In this document: piece by piece, positions 11,801-29,800 of the stretch
How positions within the stretch are numbered: position 1 is the stretch's first letter
How the letters are laid out: the number at the start of each line of letters is the position of its first letter
DNA from: Obrimoposthia wandeli
Taxonomy: Eukaryota
Assembly (NCBI GenBank): GCA_977020255.1
Contig: CDROCS010006203.1
Span: 124,001 to 188,000 of the forward strand
Direction of reading: 5' to 3'
Length of the DNA: 64,000 nucleotides
Notes under the pieces: generated by a model
Databases searched by the model: none
Told to the model about the DNA's origin: nothing
The model's input: only the letters and a program-made list of their open reading frames with translations
Translations under genes and position numbers: made by a program

Positions 11801-14800
11801 TCACTTACTTTTTTATAAATTTTGACTTTATACTTGAGAGTTTGGACTCTCAAGTCCGGAACAGCATTAAGTCTACAGAGAAACTCTGATATAATGAATT
11901 TCAATATAACGAAACCCTACTACAACGAAACGATTTGCTCAATCCATTTAAATGCGTTATCATGAGGTTTTACTGTATTTCGGCATTTAGTTTATTATAA
12001 CCGTTGACTGTGAAAATCCAGTTTCACACAATTAAGTAGTGGGAAATGGCAGTGCTGTTCGTACTGTTTGCTTAACAATATCAGGAAATTCGTGGATCAA
12101 ATTGCGCCAAAAACTTATTCATCATCGAGCCTTTGCTTCAATGAAGTGTGAATGACTGCGTAATCTGATGCATAAAGTTTGAATGGTTTTTCTGTCAATT
12201 AAAATGACTTATTGATCCAACTGTTGTTAATATTTTGGGAAGTACGTGACAAAGTTTTCTTGCTATTTCTTCACGAACTGTTTTATGCAGTTCACTAAAA
12301 ATTTCTGCAAAATATTCATGTACGATTGAAAAACCTTCCATATTGTTCTCGATACATAAATGCCAAAACGGCAATTTGCAAGATGTTCCTGACTTTATCA
12401 TGTGCATTGAACACTGTAATGTTCTTCCCCTACAGTGATAAGTTCAATTCGTTCAGTTTGGCAAAGATGTCAGATAGATATGCAAGTCTCAGTAGCAAAG
12501 TTAGATATATTAAATATCCAGATAGTGAAAACATTTGTGGGCTAAAGAAAATAGAGAGATCCTACCCAATTCAAATACTCGGTAAAGATTCTGGTCACAT
12601 GACCTCCTTCTCACCTCAGTGTGCAATATTAAAACACAAGATTTTGAAAATTCCCGATTGTAAAGGTTGAATTTTAACAAAGTTCATAATTTTCACTGCA
12701 ATATCCAAAACTAACACGAACATATCAATGTACAAGTACCTGCCTGTGAAGAATACAGTGACTACTAGTACATATTGGTACAACATATTTTATTCGTGTC
12801 ACTGATCCAGATCATTTCCGAACAACGCATTAGCTCTGTCAGTGCAAATATGCTAAGAAATTATGTGCTTCTTTATGTAATTGTTAAAATATCTTCTCCA
12901 CAAGCTAATGATTTACATAGGAGAAAATCTTCTTCAACTGCTGTAGTAAAAAAACAACGTAGAAACAGTAGCAAAATTTATACGTCTTCTATATCTGTGG
13001 ATTCATCAATTGTAGAAAAGTGCATCCATGCCGCGTAGGTATGATATCAATTCTTTCTCAATATATTCAAAATTTCTTGAATACATCGTTACATAGTATT
13101 GGAATTGCATACATTTTTGCCACTCTCTTCATTCTGCATACATAACATAATCTACTTAGCCAACGGCTTTAGTAAAGTTTCAGCTGTTGAGTGTGCTTCC
13201 CCAACCTGAGCTATGCAATAACTCACCTGAAATGATGTTTCTGATGCATTCTAAGGGTCTCCTTTAACCATCTTTGACATTAAATGCTGGTTACTTTTGA
13301 GCGTATCCAACTTTCTTCTAAAGAATGTTACTGTGGTTTGTATTCGGTTAGTCGTAGGTTTTATAGGGTAATTTCAATTTGGAAACTAAACTATTAAACT
13401 AGAATCAAGAGTGTTTATAGTTTGGTGAATCGCGACTAGTATGTCGAATGAATGAATTGATTTTGAAGGTTTGTGGGACCGCTGCTGGTGAGTTGAGAGA
13501 ATTGATTGTTTTTACAGGCCACGAAAATATATTTTAAAACTGATTGGGAACGTAAATTTTAATTTAATTAGCATTTATTAAATTTTATTTAATGTTTAAT
13601 ATTTAAATTAATATTTAACACATAATGCCATATCAGCAATCATAATCAAGATCCCAACAGAAGTGTAAAGTGTCGGTTCTAAAACAATAGCACACAAAGC
13701 CCCCCCCCCCGAACAAGGCACAAGGAACAAAGCACATCTGAAATTTGTTTAGTCATACAGATGTGCTTTGTTCCTTGTGCCTTGTTCGGGGGGGGGGGCT
13801 TTGTGTGCTATTGTTTTAGAACCGACACTTTACGTCTCGAAATTTGTTTGGTCTTATGCGTCACTTACGATTATGTAGGTTAATATTTTGTAACATTAAG
13901 TATATAGTTCAAAAATTTAAAAATTCTAAATTTAAAATTTAAAATTAAAAAATTTAAAATTTAAAAATTTAAAATTTAAAATATGAAAATTAAAAAATTA
14001 AAATTTTAATTCGAAAATTAAATATGAAAATTTTGAAATTAAACACAATTGACCGTCCCAAATTTTTATTTGCAACTATTTAATTTACTTAGTACTGCGA
14101 CCTCATTCCAGGAGTTAGACTGCCCCGCATAACCGGACAGTTATCGCATATTTATCATAAGAAACGTTATTGTTTATAGTAGGAGTCTATATTTATATAA
14201 TGAATAAAGCAAAGTAACATCGATAAATATATATTAGTACAATTATAAGCGAACTTGTCCATCAGTAATTTTCCAGATTGGTTTATGAAGACCTGTACAG
14301 TTGATTTTGTATCCCTGTATTGAAATGACGATCATCCACTTGAGTCCAGTTCCCATATTGTCAACATTAAAGTCGTGATCTCGCTTGAAAAGATTAGGAT
14401 CAGCTCGAATTATTATATGATTCCCAACTATAATGTTGAGATGCATCGACTCAAAAGTTTTGTTAAGATCATCAATATCTGACGGATTTAATCTATGTAT
14501 CTTGAAATCGTATTTTGACTTATTCAGAGCCACCGGAAACATGAATCCATATATGATTGGAGTCTTCAAAAAATTCATTTGCCAGTTATAAAACATAACC
14601 GGCTTGGTGTACTTCAAATCGTTAGACTCAAATATTACATCTGATGGTTTATTGTTGAACGGTTTCTTATGTTTGGGTGTAGAGACTATATCATCAATAA
14701 AGAGATCCTCATTTGTTGCTTGCTTCTCAATCTTGATAGTCTTGGTTTGTTTATGGTTGTTGCTTGTCATAGTTTGCTTCTTTGGTTTTGATATAAAAAC

Positions 14801-17800
14801 TACATCATCATCATCGGTATCCACATCTGTGTCTGTAAGCCTTGTTGGTGGTGGCTTCTCGAACTTAAGAGATTTAGTTTGTTTAGAGTTCATATCAAAA
14901 TAATGAATTCTATACCAAAAGTGGTAGCTTATATATATATATATCATACTCGATTCTGATTGGATAATCTTTAGCTTAAAAATTTTATATATAGATTGGG
15001 TTATTTCCAATAATTCAATCATGAATCTTGCAAATATTAATTATAAAGGTAAAGTTAAAGGATACATCAGTCACTTACCCTTCAAAACCGGGAAACCATG
15101 TCAGTACGTGCACAGGTGTAAGGATTATACCCTTATAATCTTCCGTTCAGGTATGTTTTTTATGTTAGTTAGTTAGTTATTATTAGGAGCATGCAGGATA
15201 ATGGGTTGCAAGAAACCTATTACTACAACTTTGCTCAAGTGTCCATTTAGAATAAAGATTGATCGTATTCAATCCGTAACGGTTACTGTCGATTTAGGTA
15301 AGAAGGTGAACCTATACAAGTTGTCTCAAAAGTGTGGAGCTGCATGCATGTTCGAACCTGAGTTGTTTCCTGCTTTAAGGTTTACAAAACACAATCCTCT
15401 GTGCGTCAACATATTTGCAAGCGGGAAAGTGGTCATACTCGGTCTCAAGGATTTGGATTATCACTTTGATGTGACTTTGATAATAACTGATATTTTACTT
15501 TTGATATAAACAATAAATTTTAGTTGAATTTTATTCTTACATGATTTGAAATGCTAGTTGATTATATACTTCATTATACAACTGTTGATGATGTTTTAGT
15601 TAGACGAAAAGTAGGTTATTCTAGAATGAAAGTTTTACACTGGAAATATAGACGTGAAAGTGAAAGATTAAGATCATTAATTATAAATTTTAAAGGGAAA
15701 CAATCTATAAATGATTTAGCTAAAGCCGGATTTTATAAACATGATGATGATTCAACCGATAAAGTAAAATGTATATACTGTCAAGGTGCGTTATCCGAAT
15801 GGGAATGGTATCTTAAACCAATGAAGCAACATATGAAATTTTTTCCTACATGTCCATTTCTTTTAAAGTTAAATGTTTCAAATGTACCAATAATTGAAAC
15901 TATGAACAAGAAAATCGATTTTGATACATCACCATTGATTGGAAAAGTACATGTATCAGATATTGATATAAAATTACCTGATATATGCTATTCAAAATGT
16001 TTAGGACCCTATAATGAGGCTAATGTTATTGAGAAAATCGAAACAGATTGTATAATTGAATATCCATTGACTATCGAGAAATTCGATATGTTGATGGATA
16101 CAAACCAAATCAGATATTTGAAAAAGTTTTTCACAAAAGATAGAATAAAATCTGTTTTAAAATATAAAATGATGCGATATGGTGAATACAATTCACTATT
16201 TGAATTGCTTTGTGATTTATCTAATTTAGAAATGAAACCTGAAAAACAATATATAAATATACTTTCATACATTTTAAAGGTACCCGAATGTGTAGTATGT
16301 TTAAATAATCATATTGAAGTAGTATTTCTCCCTTGTGGACATGTAAATACATGTATATCATGTTCTAGAATGTTACATTCATGTCCAGTATGCAGATGTC
16401 TGATTGAACGGAGAGTAAGAAATGTAAAATTTCATGGTATAAACAATTGAAATTTATGATTTATATAAATGGATGAAAACGATAAATTAGTTGATGATGC
16501 AGTCGAAGAAATTATAAATGGAACAATAAATGGAGTTCAATACTTTTCTAGTTTTGATGGACTTTCTCGTAATAATATAAAGGAAATTGTTTGCACCCAT
16601 GTATATAGAGATATCAAACGAATTAAGGATTTTGAAACATTCGTTCAAATTAATCGTTCAAACATGATGTATATAACCTTTTCTGCGTCAATTTTTAATT
16701 CTCTGTTGTTGTATATATTAATAAAACGTATATAAACAATCGTTTCTTTTGATTTATTATTATTGATGATGATAAAACTTAAAAATAACGCGGTTTACCA
16801 AATAGTAGGACCTAGTGGGAGTGGGAAAACACATTTTGTAACTAAATTACTTCAAAATAAAAACATGTTTAATCAAAAGTTTAGTAGAATATACTGGCAT
16901 TACGGAGGTGTAGGTGAATCTGGTCTAACACGAACAGAATTAGGTAAATTGAAGGGTATTCATTTTATTAATGGTTTTGATAATAAATGGTCTGAGAGGT
17001 TAAATTCAGGAGATGTCATTGTAATTGATGACTTGTATGATGAAGCGAATAAAGAGTCGGGTTTTAATAACCTGTTTACCAAAATAGCTAGACATAGAAA
17101 TGTAACAGTGATTTTTATCACTCAAAATCTCTTTCATCAAGGCGGTCAACACCGTACTCGAAATTTAAATGTACATTATCTAGTATTATTTAAAAATCCG
17201 CGAGATCAAACGGTTATCGACTTTGTTGCCCGTCAAGCTTTCCCTTGTAATAAGCAATATTTGATTGACGCATTTCAAGATGCAACAACTAACCCTCATG
17301 GATACTTGTTTTTAGATTTTACACAGGAATGTCCAGACGATTTACGCGTGAGAACCGATATTTTCAATAATGATTTTGTATATAAACAAAAGAAAAGCCT
17401 ATCTACTTGTTAATCATGTCATTTATGAAAGAAACAATGCCTAGTGGAGTTGGACCTAAATGGAGACCGGGTGATAAATTACACGCTAATGATAACAAAT
17501 TTATGTTAAAGAAGAATGCTCATATTAAAAATCTTATTAAATCAGTGCTTCATCAGCGTAAAGTAGTCGATGAATCATTAAAGAAATCGGTAAAGACAGT
17601 AAAGAGAAAACCTGTAAAAAAGAAACCATTAAAGAAGAAACCTGTTAAGAAAGCAGTTGGAAAGTCGGTTAAGAAGTCGGATAAAAAGCATGTAAATAAA
17701 CTAGTTGGTAAATGGATTAAACTATAAACAATATTGCAAATAGTTTAATTCATTAAACATGTTATCAAAATCTATACTTCCCTACTTTCAGGCTTTAATC

Positions 17801-20800
17801 AAGGCTCCAAGCATATATAGACAACGTATACTCAAGTCATTTCCACCCTTTGTTATTGATAAGTTGGTTGTGGTCTTGTTTAATATTACAAAAGGTACTG
17901 TAAAAATCGGTAATCATAAACATAACCTTAGAAAACATCAAAAAGCTTTACTTGATTTAGTGAATACTAAAAGTAAAACTGGTAAACGTAGAGTAATTCT
18001 AAAACAAAAAGGTGGTTTTATCGGTGCATTAATACCTATAATTGCTACTTTAGTATCTCCTTTGATTGCAAAATTGATAAACTCATAAACAAAATGGGTA
18101 ATAACATACCAAACATCGATTTTAAATTCACTTGTTGTAATGGAAACGATATGGTACGATCCCGAAAACCCAGCTGGGTACAGCGGCATTGGCAAACTAT
18201 CATTAAAAAGTCAATCGACTCAAAAGAAAACTCAGAAATGGCTGAGCAATCAGCTAGCATACAGTCTAAACAAGCCAATGAAGCGGAAGTTCCCGACTCG
18301 AGCATACAGAACAAGCGGTCCTAACGATTTATGGCAGGCCGATTTGATGGAAATGATACCATATGCAAGTATCAATGATGGTAACAAGTATATTTTAACA
18401 TGTATTGACGTGTTTACAAGGTATGCGCGTGCATTACCTGTAAAATCTAAATCAGGTAAGGATATAGAGGCTGCTCTAAGTATAATGACTGATAAAACTG
18501 TCCCCATACATGTGCAAACTGATAAGGGTAAAGAGTTTTACAACAAAAATGTAGGTAGTTTATTTAAAAATTAAATATTGAACATTACTCTGTAGTTTCA
18601 CAATTCAAAGCTGCCCTAGTTGAAAGGTTTAATAGAACATTGAGAGATCGATTAAAAGACATTTTATTGCACAAGGCAATAAAAGATGGGTTGACGTTTT
18701 ACCAAAAGTAATGACTTCATACAATCACAGTAAGCATAGAGGTTTAGACGGATTGAGACCTGTCGATATTAATGATAAAAATGCAATGGAAATTTGGTTG
18801 AGTCGTAATCAAGTCGATAAAGTTAATAAACCCAAACATAAGACTGGTGATTATGTTCGGATATCAAAGTTTAGTGGTAGCCCCTTTATTAAAAACTTTG
18901 ATCAGAATTGGAGTGATGAAGTGTTTAGGATAGAGAAAATAGACAAACGTGCAAATCCTGTAATGTACTCTATAGTTGATGATGACTGTAATGTAATAAC
19001 AGGGAAATTTTATGAACCTGAACTACAAGTAATTGATAAACCTACACTTTTCCGTATCCAAGAAGTTGTAAAATCTAAAGGCCGTGGTAAGAATAAACAA
19101 TATCTCGTAAAGTGGCATGGATATTCTGAATCAACATGGATCAAAGCAAGCCAGATAGAGACTTCTATATGATTTTACCGAGTAATAGTTGTCCGAAAAC
19201 TCAACCTAATAATATGGCTTCATTATTCACTGTAGATTGGGAGAATCCAATTACGTTAAATGGTAAATGGGAGGCGGCATTAACTGAATTTACGTACACA
19301 AACACTCCTGTTATTTTAAATAAGGGCAGTGAAATTAATTATTCTATTAAATTATCCAATCAACAGACTGATCAAATATCTTTATCAGTAATTCATACTC
19401 AAGTAGAAGTAGAAAAGAAAGAACCGCAATTGCATGGTGATAAATCAGAACCAAAAGTTATTAAAAAGACAATTAATAAAATATCAAAACTCACCGTCAC
19501 GTCTAAAGATAAGATTGCAAAGCTTTCTATTTCCTTAAGCACAGTTGGTGTAGGTATTGATAAAAAGGATAATGTTGTACTAATAAAATCCGTCAACAAC
19601 AAAAAATTCTATATCAAGATGGATGCTGACGCTAAAAATGAATTAGGATTCATTTTCAATACATTAACTTCAGAAGGTTTCGAGTCTGATGATAAAGGAG
19701 TTTTACTTGGATCAACGTCTATCAGACCTGATTGCAGTGCACATAATTTACAATATATGCATTATAAAACCGGTTCATACAACAAGAAAATTGTATTTAC
19801 AGAAGATTTAAATAATAATAATGTAAATGCATTAGTAGCATACATTAAATCTAAATGCGACGTCATATTTAAAAGATTTTATATTGATGATAATGATAAG
19901 CTAATAAAATTTGTATTAAAGAATGGAATTGAGCATATTGGATTTGATCAACGTTTAATGTATGTATTAGGGTTAGATAAATCACGATTTACGGGCAACG
20001 GGTCTGGACTACCTCGATTAAATTACGAGTTTGATCACATGTACTTGTATTCTAGTCTGTGTGAACCTGTAAACGTTGGAGGTCAAATGATACCCTTATT
20101 AAAATCTATATGGTTAGATAAAAATAAAGCACCAGGAGACACGGTTAATATCGCAATATACAGACCCATGTATATCCCTTTAGCATCAAATGTAATCTCA
20201 AACATTGAAATTAATATTAGAAACGATGCAGGTGTTCCAATAAGTTTTTCCAACAATGCAAAAGTATCCCTTACCATACATGTCCGTTGTATAGATCAGG
20301 TATAAACAATCTGTATTCAAAAATAGTTGTCCATTACAGTTATGAATATAATTGAGACATTTAGTGGACCTCAACAAGGTGGTGAATTACCATATTTTGT
20401 AGGTAAACAGTACGGTTCGGGATGGTTGAAAACATTGGGGCGGTTAGCATTCCCTATACTGAAAAGATTAGGTCGTGTTGGAGTTAAAACAGTTCAAGAT
20501 GTAATAATGAACAACAAATCTGTGTTACCAATGCTTAAACAACATGCACTAGGGGAAGTTGCCGGAGCCATACCGGAGGCTAAGGAAGCTTTTGGTACAG
20601 TTGTTAAAATTATTAAAAATCGACGTAAACGTAAAGCATGTGAAGCAGCACAAATGGTTGAACCCGAAACTAAAAAGCAAGAGGGTAGTGGTAGAAAGAA
20701 AGCATCTAGTATAAACAAACGAAGAAAACAAGGTACAATATTTGCTTAATAATGGCTTGTGGTAAATCTGAATTATGTATTTTTGATCGAGCTTTGCCCC

Positions 20801-23800
20801 AGGTAGTTGTAAGTAATGGTAGCTTTGAAGATATATATCCAACAAACAATATTACCGGAACAAGAACATCAGAGATTCTGTTTAAAATTCAAGGTTCAGA
20901 TATTGAGTACTTAGATTTGAATGATACCTTGTTGTTTGTGAAAATTAAAGTAACGAAAACTGATGGTACAGAAATAGCTGTTGCAGATAATGTGGTCCCA
21001 TCAAATTTCTTGATGCATTCCCTATTTAAAAGCATAGATATAACAATGAATAATACTGTAGTAGAAACCCATCCTCAATATGCACAAAAAGCTATGATTG
21101 AAACCATACTAAACTATAGCACAGACACTAAAGACACTTGTTTGTCGAGTATAGGTTATGATGATGATGATGATGATGATGATAAGCGTAAAGGTTGGGC
21201 TGCTCGCTCAAAAGAAATTGACTTGTGTGGGACTCTTCGATCTGATATTTTTGAGCAACCAAAGTATCTCTTACCTGGTGTGTCTATCATGGTAAGACTT
21301 GTACCTAATAAATCTATGTTTAGTCTGAACTACGGAACGACTCTATCGCGAATCATATTTATTGAAGCTAAACTTAAAGTCAGAAGAATCAGAGTTGAGA
21401 ATGATGTTTTAATGGGACATAATATTGGTCTTGAATCTAGGAATGCTGTATATCCCTATACTCGCAGAAAGCTAATGTATCATACCTTAGCCATCGGTTC
21501 TACGAGTTTTTACAAGGATCAAGTGTTTGATGATGAACAATTGCCTAAATTTGTGTTGATTACGTTGCAAGCAGGTGAAAAACTTATCGGTAATGCTGCT
21601 ACAGACTCTTCAACATTCGATCATTCTAATGTTAACACTATCAGTCTTGCTAGAAACAGTGATTTTAACGAATCTTACAGTACAAACTTTGAAACAGGTG
21701 AAACCACCTTTGCATATGTCCAATCTATCATTAGAAATATGGGTAATTTGGATAAGAATATAAACAATGGCGTATCACTGGATGAATTCGAAACCAAATA
21801 TCCATTTTTCACGTTTGTTTTAGCCCCTGACTTTGATATCACGCAAAACCAATTAGCAAAACAGGGTAATTTACGCCTTGACATCAAGTTTCACAAGTCA
21901 TTAACAGTCCCAACAAACGTACTGATTTACGGGATTTTTGATTCTGAGTTTGAAATAACTAAAGGCCGACGTGTGATTGTATGAAGTGAGTTTTTAATTT
22001 ATGTTTTAAGATTTTATTAACAACAGTACTGTTCAGGTGAATGAAATAACTAGTTTGCTGCTCGGACCGCGATTTAAGGGTGTATACCCGTTGGAAAAAA
22101 TCCCAACATTAACGCCTGGGGGATATATTGTCAATACACATACCTCAAATCTTCCTGGAGAACACTGGATTGCGTTATTCGTGAGACGGAATTCTGTACA
22201 TGTGTATGACCCTCTTGGAGTATACTATCCAGGAAAACTTATCAAACATGTAGAGTCTCAAGGAAAACATGTATATTACAACAAAATTCGTTCTCAAAAC
22301 CCGCTGACTACTAATTGCGGTCCACTATGTATCTTATGGTTGTATGATCAAACTATATAAATGTCAAACCTTTTTATTTGTGTTGATTGGTAATAAAATT
22401 TGTATTCAAAATCGTATTTGTTTTATAAATAGCTGTCCCATCGAAATTTTAAAAAAAAAATTTGAGTTTTGATAAATTAAAAAATAGATTTAAAATCTAC
22501 TAATTAAGAGAAAATTAATGGTGTTAATTATTTTTAAAAATTTAAAGTTTAACGGTGTGAATTTCAGTTATGAAAAAATTCATAATTGATTGACCGTAAT
22601 TAACCTTTATGATCACGTGTGTAGCAACTAGGGAATAAAGAGTCTTTATTACGCATTCCTAGTTTGTAAGTACACACGTGATGTGTGACGTGTACATCTA
22701 GGGCAGCAACTACACTGATTGTGAACCATATATAAACAATCAGTGTAGTGTCATTTATCAATTTCATTCACAATTTCGAAAAGTAAGTATTTTGATTTTA
22801 TTTTTTATTATTTTTTTTTTTTTTAGATGTCAAAAATTATTTTTGCTTACAACAGCAATAAAAAATGGACAGTGAAGCCTGCAGTCGATGATGATGATGA
22901 TGATGATGATGTCGACTTGGATGCGACACCTGTCAAGAAAAGTAATTTTGATTATTATTATTATTATTATTATTATTTTTAATTTAATTTAGCAATACAG
23001 AGTGTCACACCACCGCCAATATCAATCGCACCATGGCTTTCAACGCACCATGCTCCTACTAAGAAAAGAAGCCGAAAGCAGAAGAAAAAGAAGAATATGC
23101 CAACAACAATATATGATGATGATGATGATGAAAAGAAGAAAATGTCAAAAGTTTTTTTATCTCTTGAGAAATCTTCTCACTCTCAACTTCCTTCTTCTTC
23201 TTCATCTTCTCATTCTCATTCTCATTCTCATTCTCATTCTCATTCTCATTCTCATTCTCCATATGATAATCATTTATATAAACTTTTTGGGGATATAAGG
23301 GATATAAAATCTTATTCTCCCGACTGCGATAGCTGCCCGGTAACGCGGGGCAGTCTAACTCCTGGAATGGGGTCGCAGAATAAGTTAATTAAATCAAGAG
23401 GTTACCCCTTACTTTTTAAACCAGGAACACCTGTTGGGTCACCTGTTAATTCAGTAGAAAATTTCAACGTAAATGAGATATACTCGGGTTTTGAAAATAT
23501 CCCGTTTAAAAAATATTTTAATCAATTAAAGAAAGTAAAAAATCAAAATATTGATTTAAGTAAACTTAAAACAGAAGGTAGGAAAGGTAAAAGATTTCGT
23601 CAGAAGCTGCGTAGATTGAGAAAACTACCAGCAGATATAACAATATTTGCAAATTTATTAGGGTCTTGCAAACCCATTAATATTAGTCCAGGTCTGAAAA
23701 TTACAGATCTGGCAAATAAATTATATGAAGTCTTTGAGACTGATCAAATTTATTTTAACCGTAATGGCATGCCCTTTGAAAGGGAAGCTATTATCGGTGA

Positions 23801-26800
23801 TGTTTTACATGAGTGGGCTATTATCCATGTATACCCTAAACTTCGTGGAGGAAGTAACTTATGTACATTGTACAAGTATTGCACAAACGTTAATCATGGA
23901 ATAGAATGTCATAGTGTAATGCTTAAATATTATAAATTTAAAAGCGGTTTTATTTGTCCACATTGTGATGTGTTATATTGTATTGACTATCAAACATTTT
24001 ATAATGATCATAAGGATCATCTGACGTATTTTAAGTCTTAAAAGTCAGCATACAAACGTAAAGTAATGAGAGTACCAACAATAGACAACAATAAAATAGC
24101 AAAAACTAATAATTTTACTGAAGAGTTTGATGTGGTAGACTCGTGGGAACCGGATAGTGTTGTAGAAATTGATACTTATCCTGAAGTTGTAGAAATTATT
24201 GAGCCTTTAAGTCCTAATGAAATCTTAAATAATAATAATATTGATGAACTTATAGATCAGGACGAGTTTATAACAGAAAATGATTTTTTCGACTCACTCC
24301 TAACTATTACGGATGATGACTTTGATAATATTGTTACAATTAATTCAGATAATATATTAACTTTTAACAATCAAATAGGAGGTGCAATTCAATCAAACCT
24401 TGTTTTTGATGTTAGTGGATTAAACATGCTTAAACTATACATTAACGATACTATGCTAACTGAACTTACTAGCAGTATAGATGTGTTTGGTCCCTGTAAA
24501 ATACAGTTTGGTGTTGAAACCGAATTTGTCAATAACGAGGGTCAACATAAAACATGACATGTAAGCTGTAAAGCAAATATTTTTGAACAAGATTTTATCA
24601 CTACAAGAACAGTTGAGCTCAACAATAAAATTGAAATTTATAAGGATATGAGTTCGGGATGGTCAGTATTTAAAATTCTGTTGGTATCCTTTAAATTTAC
24701 CGCACTTTCAAACGTAGCAGGATCATCATTTATAAAAACCCCGGTTGCGCTTGCTAAAACACTATCTATAGTGAACGTAAATAATACTGATGATCAGTGT
24801 TTTAAATACGCTGTTCTCAGTATCCTACACCATAAAGATTTCAATCGAAACAGACAAAGAGTTGAAAACTATAATGATTATTTAAATGAACTTATATGTG
24901 AGCCTGGTCCTATGAGGATAGACGGCATCAAGGCGTTTGAAAAACTCAATAATATAGCGATAACAGTATTCTCCTATAAACCTACAAAGGTAGAGCCTCA
25001 TAGTAGTCATCTAGTGTTTAAAAACCCAGATGTTAATGTTATTTATAGAACGAGTCTTAAACAGTGCGAAAAAGTAGTAAACTTGTTGCTGTTAGAACAG
25101 AGCGGTAATTATCACTATACAGGGATTACAAACCTGAATAGACTGTTAAATACTCAAAAATATAATGTGCGTCTCTTTTGGTGTGAGAAATGTCTTTTTG
25201 GATTTCGAACCACGATTTCATATGACAAACACAGGGCACATTGTAATATTAATACAGATTTAACAACCTTGTTTACAATGCCTAAAGAGATCAAGTGTCA
25301 ATTTTCCGACTGGTCTAAATCTATTGCGCCACCATTTGTTGTATATGCCGACTTTGAGTCAATACTGAGCCACATAATACTTTCAAACACATTCATAAAC
25401 CAATATCTATAGGGATGATTTTGAAAAACAACACTAATAATTCAATACAATATTTCAGTTATTACGGTCTGCAGTGTGCTAAACACTTTGTAGATAAATT
25501 AACTGAGTTGATAAATGGTGAAGTGGCAGATTTTTGGGTAAATAGTATTAATGTTCCTATGGTTTTTACTAATAATGACATGTTAAACTTTAGAGATTGC
25601 ACTAATTGCTATCTTTGTAAAAAATTAAACGATCGTATGGTTAGAGATCATGATCATATCACGGGTAAATACTTGGGTGCGGCATGCAACAAATGCAATT
25701 TAAGTCGCAAGTTTGCAAAGAGACCGGTTTTACCTGTGGTGTTTCATAACCTTATGGGTTATGATATACATCATATTTTAAAATATGCCGACTTGAAAGG
25801 TAAATCCTTTTCAATTATCCCTAAATCAAGTGAAAAGTTCATGTCCCTCCGTATAGAGATGAAGAGGGGGACATTGAAATTCATTGATTCATACCTTTTA
25901 CAACGTCAAGTCTTGAATCCTTAGTTTCATACTTGCCAAGTTGCCCTTATACTACACAATACCTAAACCCTAATATTGCAACAAGTAAGGCGGTATTTCC
26001 ATATGAATATATTAGTGGTATTGATAGGCTTATGGAGACGCAGTTACCCGCTAAATCTGAGTTTCCTTCTCGAGTCACTGATCAACAATATAATGAAGCC
26101 CTAATGATGTGGACCGTATTAGGGTGTAATACTATTAAAGACTACATGCTTGAGTATATGAAACTTGACGTGTATCTGTTATGTGATGTTTTTGAGGCCT
26201 TTAGACAGAAAGTAAGGGATGATGATAATCTAGAGGCGCTCAATTTCTTTAGTATCCCTGGTCTCAGTTGGGCTAGCGCATTAAAAACATTAGAGTATGA
26301 TGTGGATTTATTGCATGATCCCGAAATGTATAACATGTTTGAGGCAGGGATACGGGGAGGGATGACTTTCATCAATAAACATTACGTTAAAACAACAGAT
26401 GAAACATTCCTCCTATATATTGACATAAATAACTTATATGGCTGGGCCTTGAGTCAACCGTTACCACATACAGATTTTACATGGGTATATGACGGTTTTG
26501 AAGCGATAATTGAGCTTATAACTGAGAGGGATATTCACGGTAATATGCAGGACTTGAGTCTTAAAGAACATGGATACTTGTTGGAAATTGATTTAGGCAT
26601 ACCCATCAGTATTCATGATAAACTTGATGACTTACCGATTGCGCCTAATAGAGAAATCCCTCCCGGCTCAAAAGCTTCAAAGCTGTTGATGACCCATGAG
26701 GATAAAAATAATTACATCATACACTCACAACTACTACAATTTTACTTGTTTCTGGGTGCAGAAATTAAACAAGTGCATAGAGCAATAAAGTTTCATCAAG

Positions 26801-29800
26801 CTCCTATATTTAAAACATATATTGATATCAATAGCCGGAAACGGGCAGAGGGTACTACTACATTTGATAAAGAGTTTTATAAACTCAAAAATAATTCAAT
26901 ATATGGTAAGACAGTGGAAAATCTTAAAAAGCGTAAAGATATCCGTCTTACCAAGAATGATCGTCAGTTTACTAAACTTGTTTCAAGCCCTTGGTTTAAG
27001 AAGCATACCCAAATAACCGACAATCTCAATCTTTTATTTATGCAAAAGAAAGAAATTTGTCTGGATCGCCCATCATATATTGGTCAAGCTGTGTTGGACT
27101 TATCTAAACTACGTATGTACCAACTACAGTATAGTGATCTTGACCGGTATCGTAAGCAATATCATTGTGATATCAACATAGTTGCAATGGATACAGACTC
27201 GTTTTTCTTAGAGTGTAAGCATATAGATAAAGATGTCCTCTTAAAACAAATGATTAAAGATCAGATGTTAGATACGAGTAATTACCCGATCACACATGAG
27301 TTATTTAACGATTCTCATCGAAATGTGATTGGAAAGTTTAAAGATGAAAGCAAGGGGACAGTGCTTTATGATGAATGGGTATTTCTGAAACCTAAATGCT
27401 ACTCATTGAAAACGAGTATGAGGGCTAAGGGTATCTCCCTTAAACAAACCGAAATCAGACATGAGCATTACATAAAGTGTTATGTTGATGAAATTATAAC
27501 TGCCGGTCAGACACGTATTTTATCTCGCAATCATCAATTATTTACAATGTATAATGATAAAATTGCGTTAAGGTGTTATGACGATAAAAGGGTTTGGCTT
27601 GAGAAAAACAAATCCGTCGCATATGGACACTATAGTCTAAGATAGGTGTATATAAAATCTGGGGTAACCTCTTGAAAGTATTAACTAATATCCTCTTATT
27701 TTTAATGTGATAGTATGTATCTTTTTAATGCAATAGTATGTATATATTTTTAATGCTATAGTATGTATATATTTTTATTGATGTTTATTTTTAATACATT
27801 GTATGTATCATAACCATGTCTTGACTTCCTACTAGCTACTCATTGGATAATTTCATTGGTTAATTTCATTGGATAATTTTAACAAATTCTCTATAAATAT
27901 AAACACATTTCAATCAACCAATTTCTCATTATTTCAAATGACTACTTCTAAAGAAAAATTGCAAGCTCTCTATGATAACCTGAGCCCTACCTTGATGGCC
28001 CAGTATACTGAAAAGTACTTTAGTTTATTTGTTGCACCAGAACTTTTTGTCTCAAGGATTGAAGAACTTTATATGTATCACCTGTTTAATGGAGACTTTA
28101 AACCTAAAGTTGCAACAATCATTAAAATAGAAGAAGAAGAAAGCATGGATTGTGACAATGAATATAATTATGTATAAACATAGACTTTTTTTTTTTACTA
28201 AACTCCTACTATAAACAATAACGTTTCTTAAGATAAAACTGCGATAGCTGTCCGGTTATGCGGGGCAGTCTAACTCCTGGAATGAGGTCGCAGTACTAAG
28301 TAAATTAAATAGTTGCAAATAAAAATTTGGGACGGTCAATTGTGTTTAATTTCAAAATTTTAATTTTTAATTTTCATATTTAATTTTCGAATTAAAATTT
28401 TAATTTTTTAATTTCCATATTTAATTTTTTAATTTTTAAATTTTTTTAATTTTAAATTTTAAATTTTAAATTTTTAAATTTTAAATTTTAAATTTTGAAT
28501 TTTTAAATTTTTGAACTATATACAAATGTTACAGAATATTAACCTACATAATCGTAAGTGACGCATAAAACCAAACAAATTTCGAGACGTAAAGTGTCGG
28601 TTCTAAAACAATAGCACACAAAGCCCCCCCCCCGAACAAGGCACAAGGAACAAAGCACATCTGTATGACTAAACAAATTTCAGATGTGCTTTGTTCCTTG
28701 TGCCTTGTTCGGGGGGGGGGGGCTTTGTGTGCTATTGTTTTAGAACCGACACTTTACACTTCTCCCAACAGTTCCATATTTTCCTAATCGAGATGCGCAG
28801 TTTTCAAATGTTTCGAGAGTTTCGCAGGTGCAAAACACCTATTTGACACAATTTCAAGTTTGAAAGTATTATTTGATTGAACAAAGTAAATGAAAATCTT
28901 TGAAATTTATGAAATTTATGAAGTTAGAAAATAACAATAATAACCTTTAGTCCACTTAAATATTTAAAATATTATTTGATGATCAAATAAATGATAATTG
29001 GAAATATTTAATTTCACAATAAAATTGTCGTGTTTATTTAAATACAACCCATATTAAGTATTTAAACAACAACTTATTTGAAATTATTTAGAATTTCTGA
29101 TGCTAAGAAATAATATTCTGAAATTTTTGTACGGAACCCCACACTCCTTTGCGGAACCCACTGGTAAGGGAATTACTGTTATAATATAATTATGTCTTAA
29201 ATTACTTTGATGCATTCATGGCAATGATTTTCATTTAGAAATGAGTTCAAGCCGGCAGCAGTGAAACAGTTAAGAATATGATTTTACTTTTCTATCTATA
29301 AGTAAAATACAATAACATAAAAAATCATATAAAAATTTCAAACTAAAATTAAATGTTGTAAATATCACAAAACGAAAGGGAAAATACACGAATAGTTCAA
29401 TAACCACCCCTTTAATATATGTATAGATTAAAACACTATATTGTGTGTTGTATATCAATGTTTAAGTTTGCAACGAAATTTATCTATGTCATTTTACATC
29501 ATTTATACATTTTCAGAATTTTATTATGTACAGGAATGTAGCCGAGGATAAAACATTTACTTCATATTTCATCAAAATTGGCTTATTAAAACCGAGATTA
29601 TTCCCAATGTATATATCCTGCGCAAAGAATTCATTCACACAATATGTAGCATTAAATCACAAATTTTGTTGTTATTACACAATGTTTTATTTATATTTAA
29701 CATTTTTAATAAAATATAAAACTTCAGTCTATCTAATTTAAAAGTTTTGAAGCCTTGCATATTTGTCATTAATATTCTCCTCTTTTCCATACAAACTTTG

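Follow-up and report, generated by a model that had tools for sequence, protein, structure and literature searches.

What is a ubiquitin-like domain (Ubl) ending in LRGG doing immediately upstream of a transposon polymerase? The question is raised by a Polinton/Maverick element (family 1) of Obrimoposthia wandeli, located in a 64,000-nucleotide stretch of DNA (the window; assembly GCA_977020255.1, contig CDROCS010006203.1, positions 124,001 to 188,000, forward strand). A preliminary description of the window had reported a small gene directly upstream of the DNA polymerase gene PolB, encoding a Ubl of 72 residues and a 62-residue Cys/His tail. Cleavage after its Gly-Gly was proposed to release a zinc-binding peptide and to expose a conjugatable modifier or decoy. 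The 72 residues and the adjoining Cys/His stretch are both present. Comparison of copies and relatives places the Ubl within the polymerase frame, with its Gly-Gly at the old polymerase start, in two sister families and under purifying selection. The Ubl is thus probably a removable pro-domain of the polymerase, and a cut after the Gly-Gly would free a chain comprising the Cys/His module, the terminal protein (TP), the vOTU domain and the polymerase.

The ubiquitin-like domain and the polymerase frame

The 62-residue tail is an artefact of a stop codon that is private to the window copy. Of 30 loci, the window is the only one with this stop, and none of 29 copies selected on more distal DNA, a set that overlaps slightly with the first, has it. 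The stop is also missing from 89-95% of the contig depth in four runs, which derive from one sample and behave like genomic DNA. Nor does the Ubl belong to a small separate gene. It is preceded by 218 open codons and sits inside a polymerase frame of ~1,550 residues; three other natural copies are single open frames of 1,547-1,549 codons. The order in intact copies is leader (residues 1-205), Ubl (206-277), Gly-Gly, Cys/His module, acidic linker, QIGG (451), TP, vOTU (about 569-710), an endonuclease VII-like insert and PolB, where TP and vOTU are assigned after the anatomy given in the available text of PMC11161782. The vOTU domain has no match in Pfam. The product following the Gly-Gly would be this whole chain and not a short zinc peptide. 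The window's own polymerase copy is broken in several places.

The ubiquitin fold of the domain is well supported as a prediction. An AlphaFold2 model was obtained for a sister copy, which differs from the window copy at 1 of 72 residues, using 38 aligned element-derived Ubls with no ubiquitin included. It has a predicted local distance difference test score (pLDDT) of 89.3, the strand and helix order of a beta-grasp and a ubiquitin-like core, as expected for that superfamily. The top structural neighbours of the model, as defined by Foldseek and VIA-align, are ISG15, ubiquitin, SUMO and Hub1 (Foldseek, ISG15: template modelling (TM) score 0.85, E-value (E) 1.2e-5; VIA-align: Z 12.6, root-mean-square deviation 1.6, 74 aligned), and entries from bovine viral diarrhoea virus (BVDV) are also among the matches. 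The ESM Atlas assigned the Ubl to its ubiquitin cluster (0.92, 171 features), and a phmmer search of 1.84 billion sequences returned one Pfam-ubiquitin protein (E 9.6e-4, 31% over 101 residues).

The likeness to ubiquitin that had been read by eye therefore stands for the fold and is weak in the sequence alone. At the sequence level neither Pfam nor the PDB yielded a match to ubiquitin, the best PDB rows being short chance matches; the Ubl falls below the Pfam cut-off for PF00240, and Ubiquitin_2 is touched by 2 of the 38 family members (E 0.048). The alignment with host ubiquitin contains 17 identities (about 22%), and its score without LRGG is reached by 95/2000 local and 27/2000 global shuffles. 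No relatives of the Ubl were found by word-index searches (77 and 7,998 candidates) or among viral contigs. Run against 91 metagenome and viral loci and the family-2 region, a profile built from the element Ubls gave no match; however, true ubiquitin in 22 host loci escaped it as well, and the profile is thus insensitive to other Ubl lineages. A single-sequence AlphaFold2 model of the Ubl together with the Cys/His module (pLDDT 42) was not used.

Ancestral start, sister families and selection

The Gly-Gly of family 1 sits at the old start of the polymerase: in many relatives, among them a second Polinton family of the same genome, the Cys/His module is the first part of the protein. The module is found in 15 of 120 homologous polymerases and begins at most 6 residues from the N-terminus in 11 of these 15. 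Family 2 reads M-S-I-C at its start, where family 1 has GG-S-N-L-C, and harbors a divergent TBP-like gene about 100 nucleotides (nt) upstream of the polymerase start. A TATA box, TATATAAA, is located less than 60 nt before that ATG in three of the six relatives examined. The Gly-Gly of family 1 thus directly precedes the ancestral N-terminus, as does the processing signal of the BVDV type. The module is conserved, sometimes repeated, and matched no named family; the ESM Atlas likewise gave no name. It is further present, repeated two or three times, in polymerase-less proteins (P0121, P0126, P0127), some of which carry C2H2-like fingers.

A third family, older and decayed, came to light when a distant Cys/His protein was used to search the genome; it comprises two tandem Ubls ahead of the module. 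The junction Ubl has Gly-Gly in 28 of 32 copies, mostly as VFGG-S (xxGG-S in 28/32). The upstream Ubl ends in (M/I)FGV, with Gly-Gly in 0/32 covered copies. These counts come from 34 loci examined, most of them picked by likeness to the upstream Ubl. The preliminary description had made the beta-grasp fold and the conservation of LRGG tests of its proposal. The fold holds, whereas conservation is partial: the Gly-Gly is kept and the LR is lost in family 3. Among 120 more distant polymerases, none has LRGG before the TP or a listed ubiquitin domain; many of these are shortened at the N-terminus and their gene callers ignore introns, and the absence there is not complete. The Ubls of families 1 and 3 are about 42% identical (30/72). 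In a quick tree of 59 polymerase segments, from which P0042 was left out as too short, families 1 and 3 are sisters (support 99) within a clade that holds Cys/His-first relatives. The Ubl appears to have been gained once and then duplicated once in family 3.

Selection was examined by comparing synonymous and non-synonymous changes between variants shared by at least 3 copies and singletons. For the leader, Ubl and module of family 1, the shared variants are 16 synonymous and 5 non-synonymous against 24 and 57 among singletons (P 0.0003). For the family-3 Ubls the corresponding numbers are 26 and 25 against 38 and 114 (P 0.0009). This synonymous enrichment of the shared variants in both families indicates that purifying selection acted on these domains during the active life of the elements. 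The last 74 codons of the leader show 10 synonymous and 2 non-synonymous shared variants.

Proposed processing of the precursor and alternative readings

The precursor would be made with a leader containing a basic stretch that resembles a nuclear localization signal (NLS), followed by the Ubl. Leader and Ubl would aid import, folding or holding of the polymerase, and cleavage after the Gly-Gly would then remove both and free the polymerase chain at its ancestral start. The Ubl is likely a leader that is cut off rather than a free ubiquitin mimic, and its Gly-Gly, as first proposed, is a probable polyprotein cut site. It lies at the end of the fold but internally in the chain, and its exposure needs a cut.

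The element carries the two candidate proteases that had been announced, an adenain-like gene and the vOTU domain. In ubiquitin, Leu8-Ile44-Val70, Arg42, Arg72 and Arg74 form the surface recognised by the E1 enzyme and by ubiquitin-binding domains. Only Leu8 is kept in all three Ubls. The positions matching Ile44, Arg42, Lys48 and Val70 are replaced in each of them (sequence alignment), and Arg74 is found in family 1 only, its position being Phe in family 3. An element-encoded protease is favoured over a host deubiquitinase because this host-recognition surface and Arg74 are not kept: the vOTU domain quite possibly makes the cut, the adenain-like protease possibly does, and a host enzyme is a doubtful candidate. 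The LRGG of family 1 fits the adenain motif (M/I/L)XGG-X given in the available text of PMC7464072. Of 78 TP/vOTU junctions parsed in other Polintons, 7 likewise show LRGG-S, and two of the element's own proteins, probably core proteins, contain xxGG motifs.

Several observations weigh against a pro-domain that is cut off. Val occupies P4 in 30 of 32 family-3 copies, outside the quoted adenain motif, and the element's own TP/vOTU junction reads VAGS-S instead of LRGG. The Gly-Gly stems from a single gain shared by two sister families, so that the copies do not count as independent cases, and a Fisher test on Gly-Gly in the two family-3 Ubls is disregarded because of their shared ancestry. With the two families about 42% identical, a pair of glycines could survive as a linker. 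The starts of the homologues were set by gene callers blind to introns, and upstream exons may exist in some relatives. Finally, the upstream Ubl of family 3 is under selection without a Gly-Gly, which points to a role of the fold that needs no cut. The Ubl could thus be an integral, uncut domain that sets polymerase abundance or binds a partner, its Gly-Gly being a relic or a linker. Selection on the upstream Ubl is the same as on its neighbour (shared variants, 11 synonymous and 12 non-synonymous), and all three Ubls retain a Lys where ubiquitin has K29. According to the available text of a preprint on nematode Mavericks (bioRxiv 10.1101/2022.07.12.499685), cargo proteins carry N-terminal Ubls proposed in such roles, and a conserved Lys29 of MSFT-1 limits toxin dose; the preprint calls this K29 non-analogous to ubiquitin lysines, and the match to the Polinton Lys is loose. 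However, Gly-Gly is kept only in the junction copy, at the ancestral start, and family 1 holds all four C-terminal ubiquitin residues whereas the remainder is about 22% identical. An uncut regulatory domain is therefore plausible but less likely, and we prefer the removable pro-domain.

The preliminary description had also envisaged a miniature ubiquitin module, in which the Ubl, once cut, would be conjugated or serve as a decoy with the element's IAP as ligase. The IAP indeed has BIR and RING domains by Pfam. It is present in both Ubl families and was not found in the one family-2 copy examined; family 1 has LRGG, and the Ubl-Ubl-GG tandem of family 3 shares the layout of ISG15. Yet IAP proteins have an ordinary anti-death role, the IAP and the Ubl share a single ancestry, the Ubl remains joined to the leader (about 240 upstream residues), and no E1 or E2 was found among 21 frames scanned on the element. 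Loss of the Ile44 surface, together with the loss of Arg74 in family 3, argues against conjugation as it does against host enzymes. Such a module is very improbable. Little more can be said for a captured ubiquitin turned into a private tag, ignored by the host, cut by an element protease, arranged in family 3 as an ISG15-like tandem, and serving, together with the RING-IAP, as a conjugated modifier or as a decoy. The lowest probability falls to a captured ubiquitin that is a functionless passenger. The Ubl is absent from the other polymerases examined and is not generally needed by Polintons, but the selection test largely refutes this reading, and the hydrophobic core is retained across three Ubls at 35-45% identity, with a duplication in family 3.

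The surrounding element and comparable systems

The element is 15.1 kb long and its terminal inverted repeats begin with AG. Its genes encode a TBP-like protein, the IAP, an A32 ATPase, a Mu-like protein, an integrase (rve) with chromodomain, capsid proteins, the adenain-like protease and PolB. It thus holds the Polinton gene set (protein-primed PolB (pPolB), rve integrase, A32 ATPase, adenain-type protease, capsid), with PolB, protease and capsid matches that are weak and under the cut-off; the polymerase is 40% identical to PF03175-bearing polymerases. The 1.35-Gb genome harbors many near-identical family-1 copies: 150 of 14,531 candidates were scored, and all of these are at least 98% identical over the queried 134 amino acids. 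Several Polinton families have members next to or inside one another in this genome (loci L250-L252, L213). The TBP-like gene has one TBP repeat (window 15177-15509) and is common to every family seen. Families 1 and 3 (L253, L215) share 80-86% identity in the IAP, against about 53-67% in most neighbouring genes, a hint of recent exchange or of strong constraint. Near-perfect 170-nt hairpins are located within both terminal repeats (window 13665-13833 and 28589-28757).

Table 1. Features of the family-1 element and its polymerase gene (window positions).
Feature	Position	Strand	Basis
Polinton/Maverick element, family 1	13659..28763		Terminal inverted repeats and 6-bp target-site duplication
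IAP gene, BIR and RING	15545..16450	+	PF00653 E 1.5e-13, PF13920 E 6.2e-11
Adenain-like cysteine protease, His/Asp/Cys motifs visible, start provisional	22010..22360	+	PF00770 E 0.0066, below curated cut-off
TATA box, predicted polymerase promoter	22729..22736	+	Sequence; putative function
Predicted intron of the 5' untranslated region, GT..AG, ends at ATG	22783..22826	+	Sequence
Predicted first coding exon, 115 nt	22827..22941	+	Length 1 mod 3 in 23/23 measurable copies
Predicted intron, GT..AG, covers in-frame stop	22942..22992	+	GT in 23/23, AG in 22/23 copies
Leader: low-complexity part, TPVGSP motif (23427-23444), basic NLS-like stretch (23577-23624)	22993..23636	+	Sequence
71-nt copy of the terminal repeat's inner end, within leader frame	23323..23393	+	Present in 55/57 loci
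Diverged ubiquitin-fold (beta-grasp) domain, predicted, 72 residues ending LRGG	23637..23852	+	Model, structure matches, ESM Atlas, phmmer
LRGG, predicted cut site, Ser next	23841..23852	+	LRGG-S in 29/29 copies selected on downstream DNA
Two-site Cys/His module, probably zinc-binding, first polymerase domain in many relatives	23853..24038	+	Sequence comparison
Stop codon private to window copy, creates apparent 62-residue tail	24039..24041	+	Copy comparison, read depth
Remainder of protein-primed polymerase gene, four pieces in window copy	24042..27645	+	Open frames of sister copies
QIGG, second possible Gly-Gly cut site, before TP domain	24372..24383	+	Sequence; similar motifs in some homologues
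vOTU-type protease domain, Cys in DDQC, His in NYHY	24726..25151	+	Position and motif; anatomy in available text of PMC11161782, PMC8502044

The 5' part of the polymerase gene contains the predicted promoter and two predicted introns, which lie outside the coverage of the four runs. The length of the first intron varies freely among copies. The phase of the first exon was measurable in 23 of 33 copies examined, and a triplet repeat accounts for part of it; a frameshift between this exon and the Ubl is found in 7 of the 23. The TP-x-GSP motif and the basic stretch precede the Ubl in families 1 and 3 alike. The 71-nt GC-rich stretch of the leader recurs at window 28238-28308 and 14080-14148 and folds as a hairpin cluster. 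A ribozyme was considered and rejected for it: Rfam gave no family at E up to 1, and the z values of folding are -1.0 to -2.8. An identical inverted 15-mer is observed at 23394-23408 (minus strand) in the leader and at 27661-27675 (plus strand) just past the polymerase stop; 0.03 would be expected by chance, for a pattern picked after the repeat was seen.

Ubiquitin-ribosomal protein and FUBI-S30 fusions place a Ubl and Gly-Gly ahead of a zinc-binding protein. These and ISG15 are host genes with the Ubl at the extreme N-terminus and known E1 or deubiquitinase partners, unlike the Polinton Ubl. Published Polinton and adintovirus pPolB proteins have a TP-vOTU-exonuclease-palm anatomy with a proposed internal vOTU cut (available text of PMC11161782; PMC8502044). 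The present element belongs to the same class, with the same gene set and polymerase anatomy, but adds a leader, a Ubl with Gly-Gly and a Cys/His module before the TP, none of which is mentioned in that text. No Ubl in a Polinton polymerase was found in a literature search that mostly left subscription journals uncovered, and the supplementary maps of PMC8502044 and PMC11161782 could show one; the word "ubiquitin" is nowhere in PMC10748475. The arrangement is reminiscent of cytopathogenic BVDV, in which ubiquitin inserts give NS3 its authentic N-terminus (available text of PMC8310069): a ubiquitin fold lies within a viral polyprotein, with Gly-Gly just ahead of a replication protein's natural N-terminus. 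In BVDV the inserts are host ubiquitin of recent origin and host hydrolases cut them, whereas the Polinton Ubl is old, selected and about 22% identical, and its cut is predicted. Diverged ubiquitin folds are also known on nematode Mavericks, in the cargo WASP and KRMA; there they are carried by cargo proteases and kinases and not by the core polymerase, and no di-glycine claim was found in the available text (bioRxiv 10.1101/2022.07.12.499685).

BEL/Pao long terminal repeat retrotransposons of the same genome (L147-L152, e.g. L147:2022-5348) carry a true ubiquitin directly before Gag. It is Pfam-positive and ends in LRGG or LKGG in 4 of 4 frames scanned, and in one group Met directly follows the Gly-Gly. 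No report of this fusion was found in the literature search. The BEL/Pao arrangement suggests that unrelated mobile elements of this genome reached the same ubiquitin-GG solution. At L153 and L154, diverged ubiquitin-like exons and short introns form a tandem 270-nt array, probably a host poly-Ubl gene.

The vOTU domains of Polintons have been proposed to process the polymerase, and no tested substrate was found in the available text of the literature consulted. The Ubl-Gly-Gly at the old polymerase start would provide a ready substrate for asking whether the vOTU or the adenain protease cuts polymerase precursors and whether they read ubiquitin folds. Natural controls are present in the same genome, in the form of a Ubl-less family and a Gly-Val paralogue.

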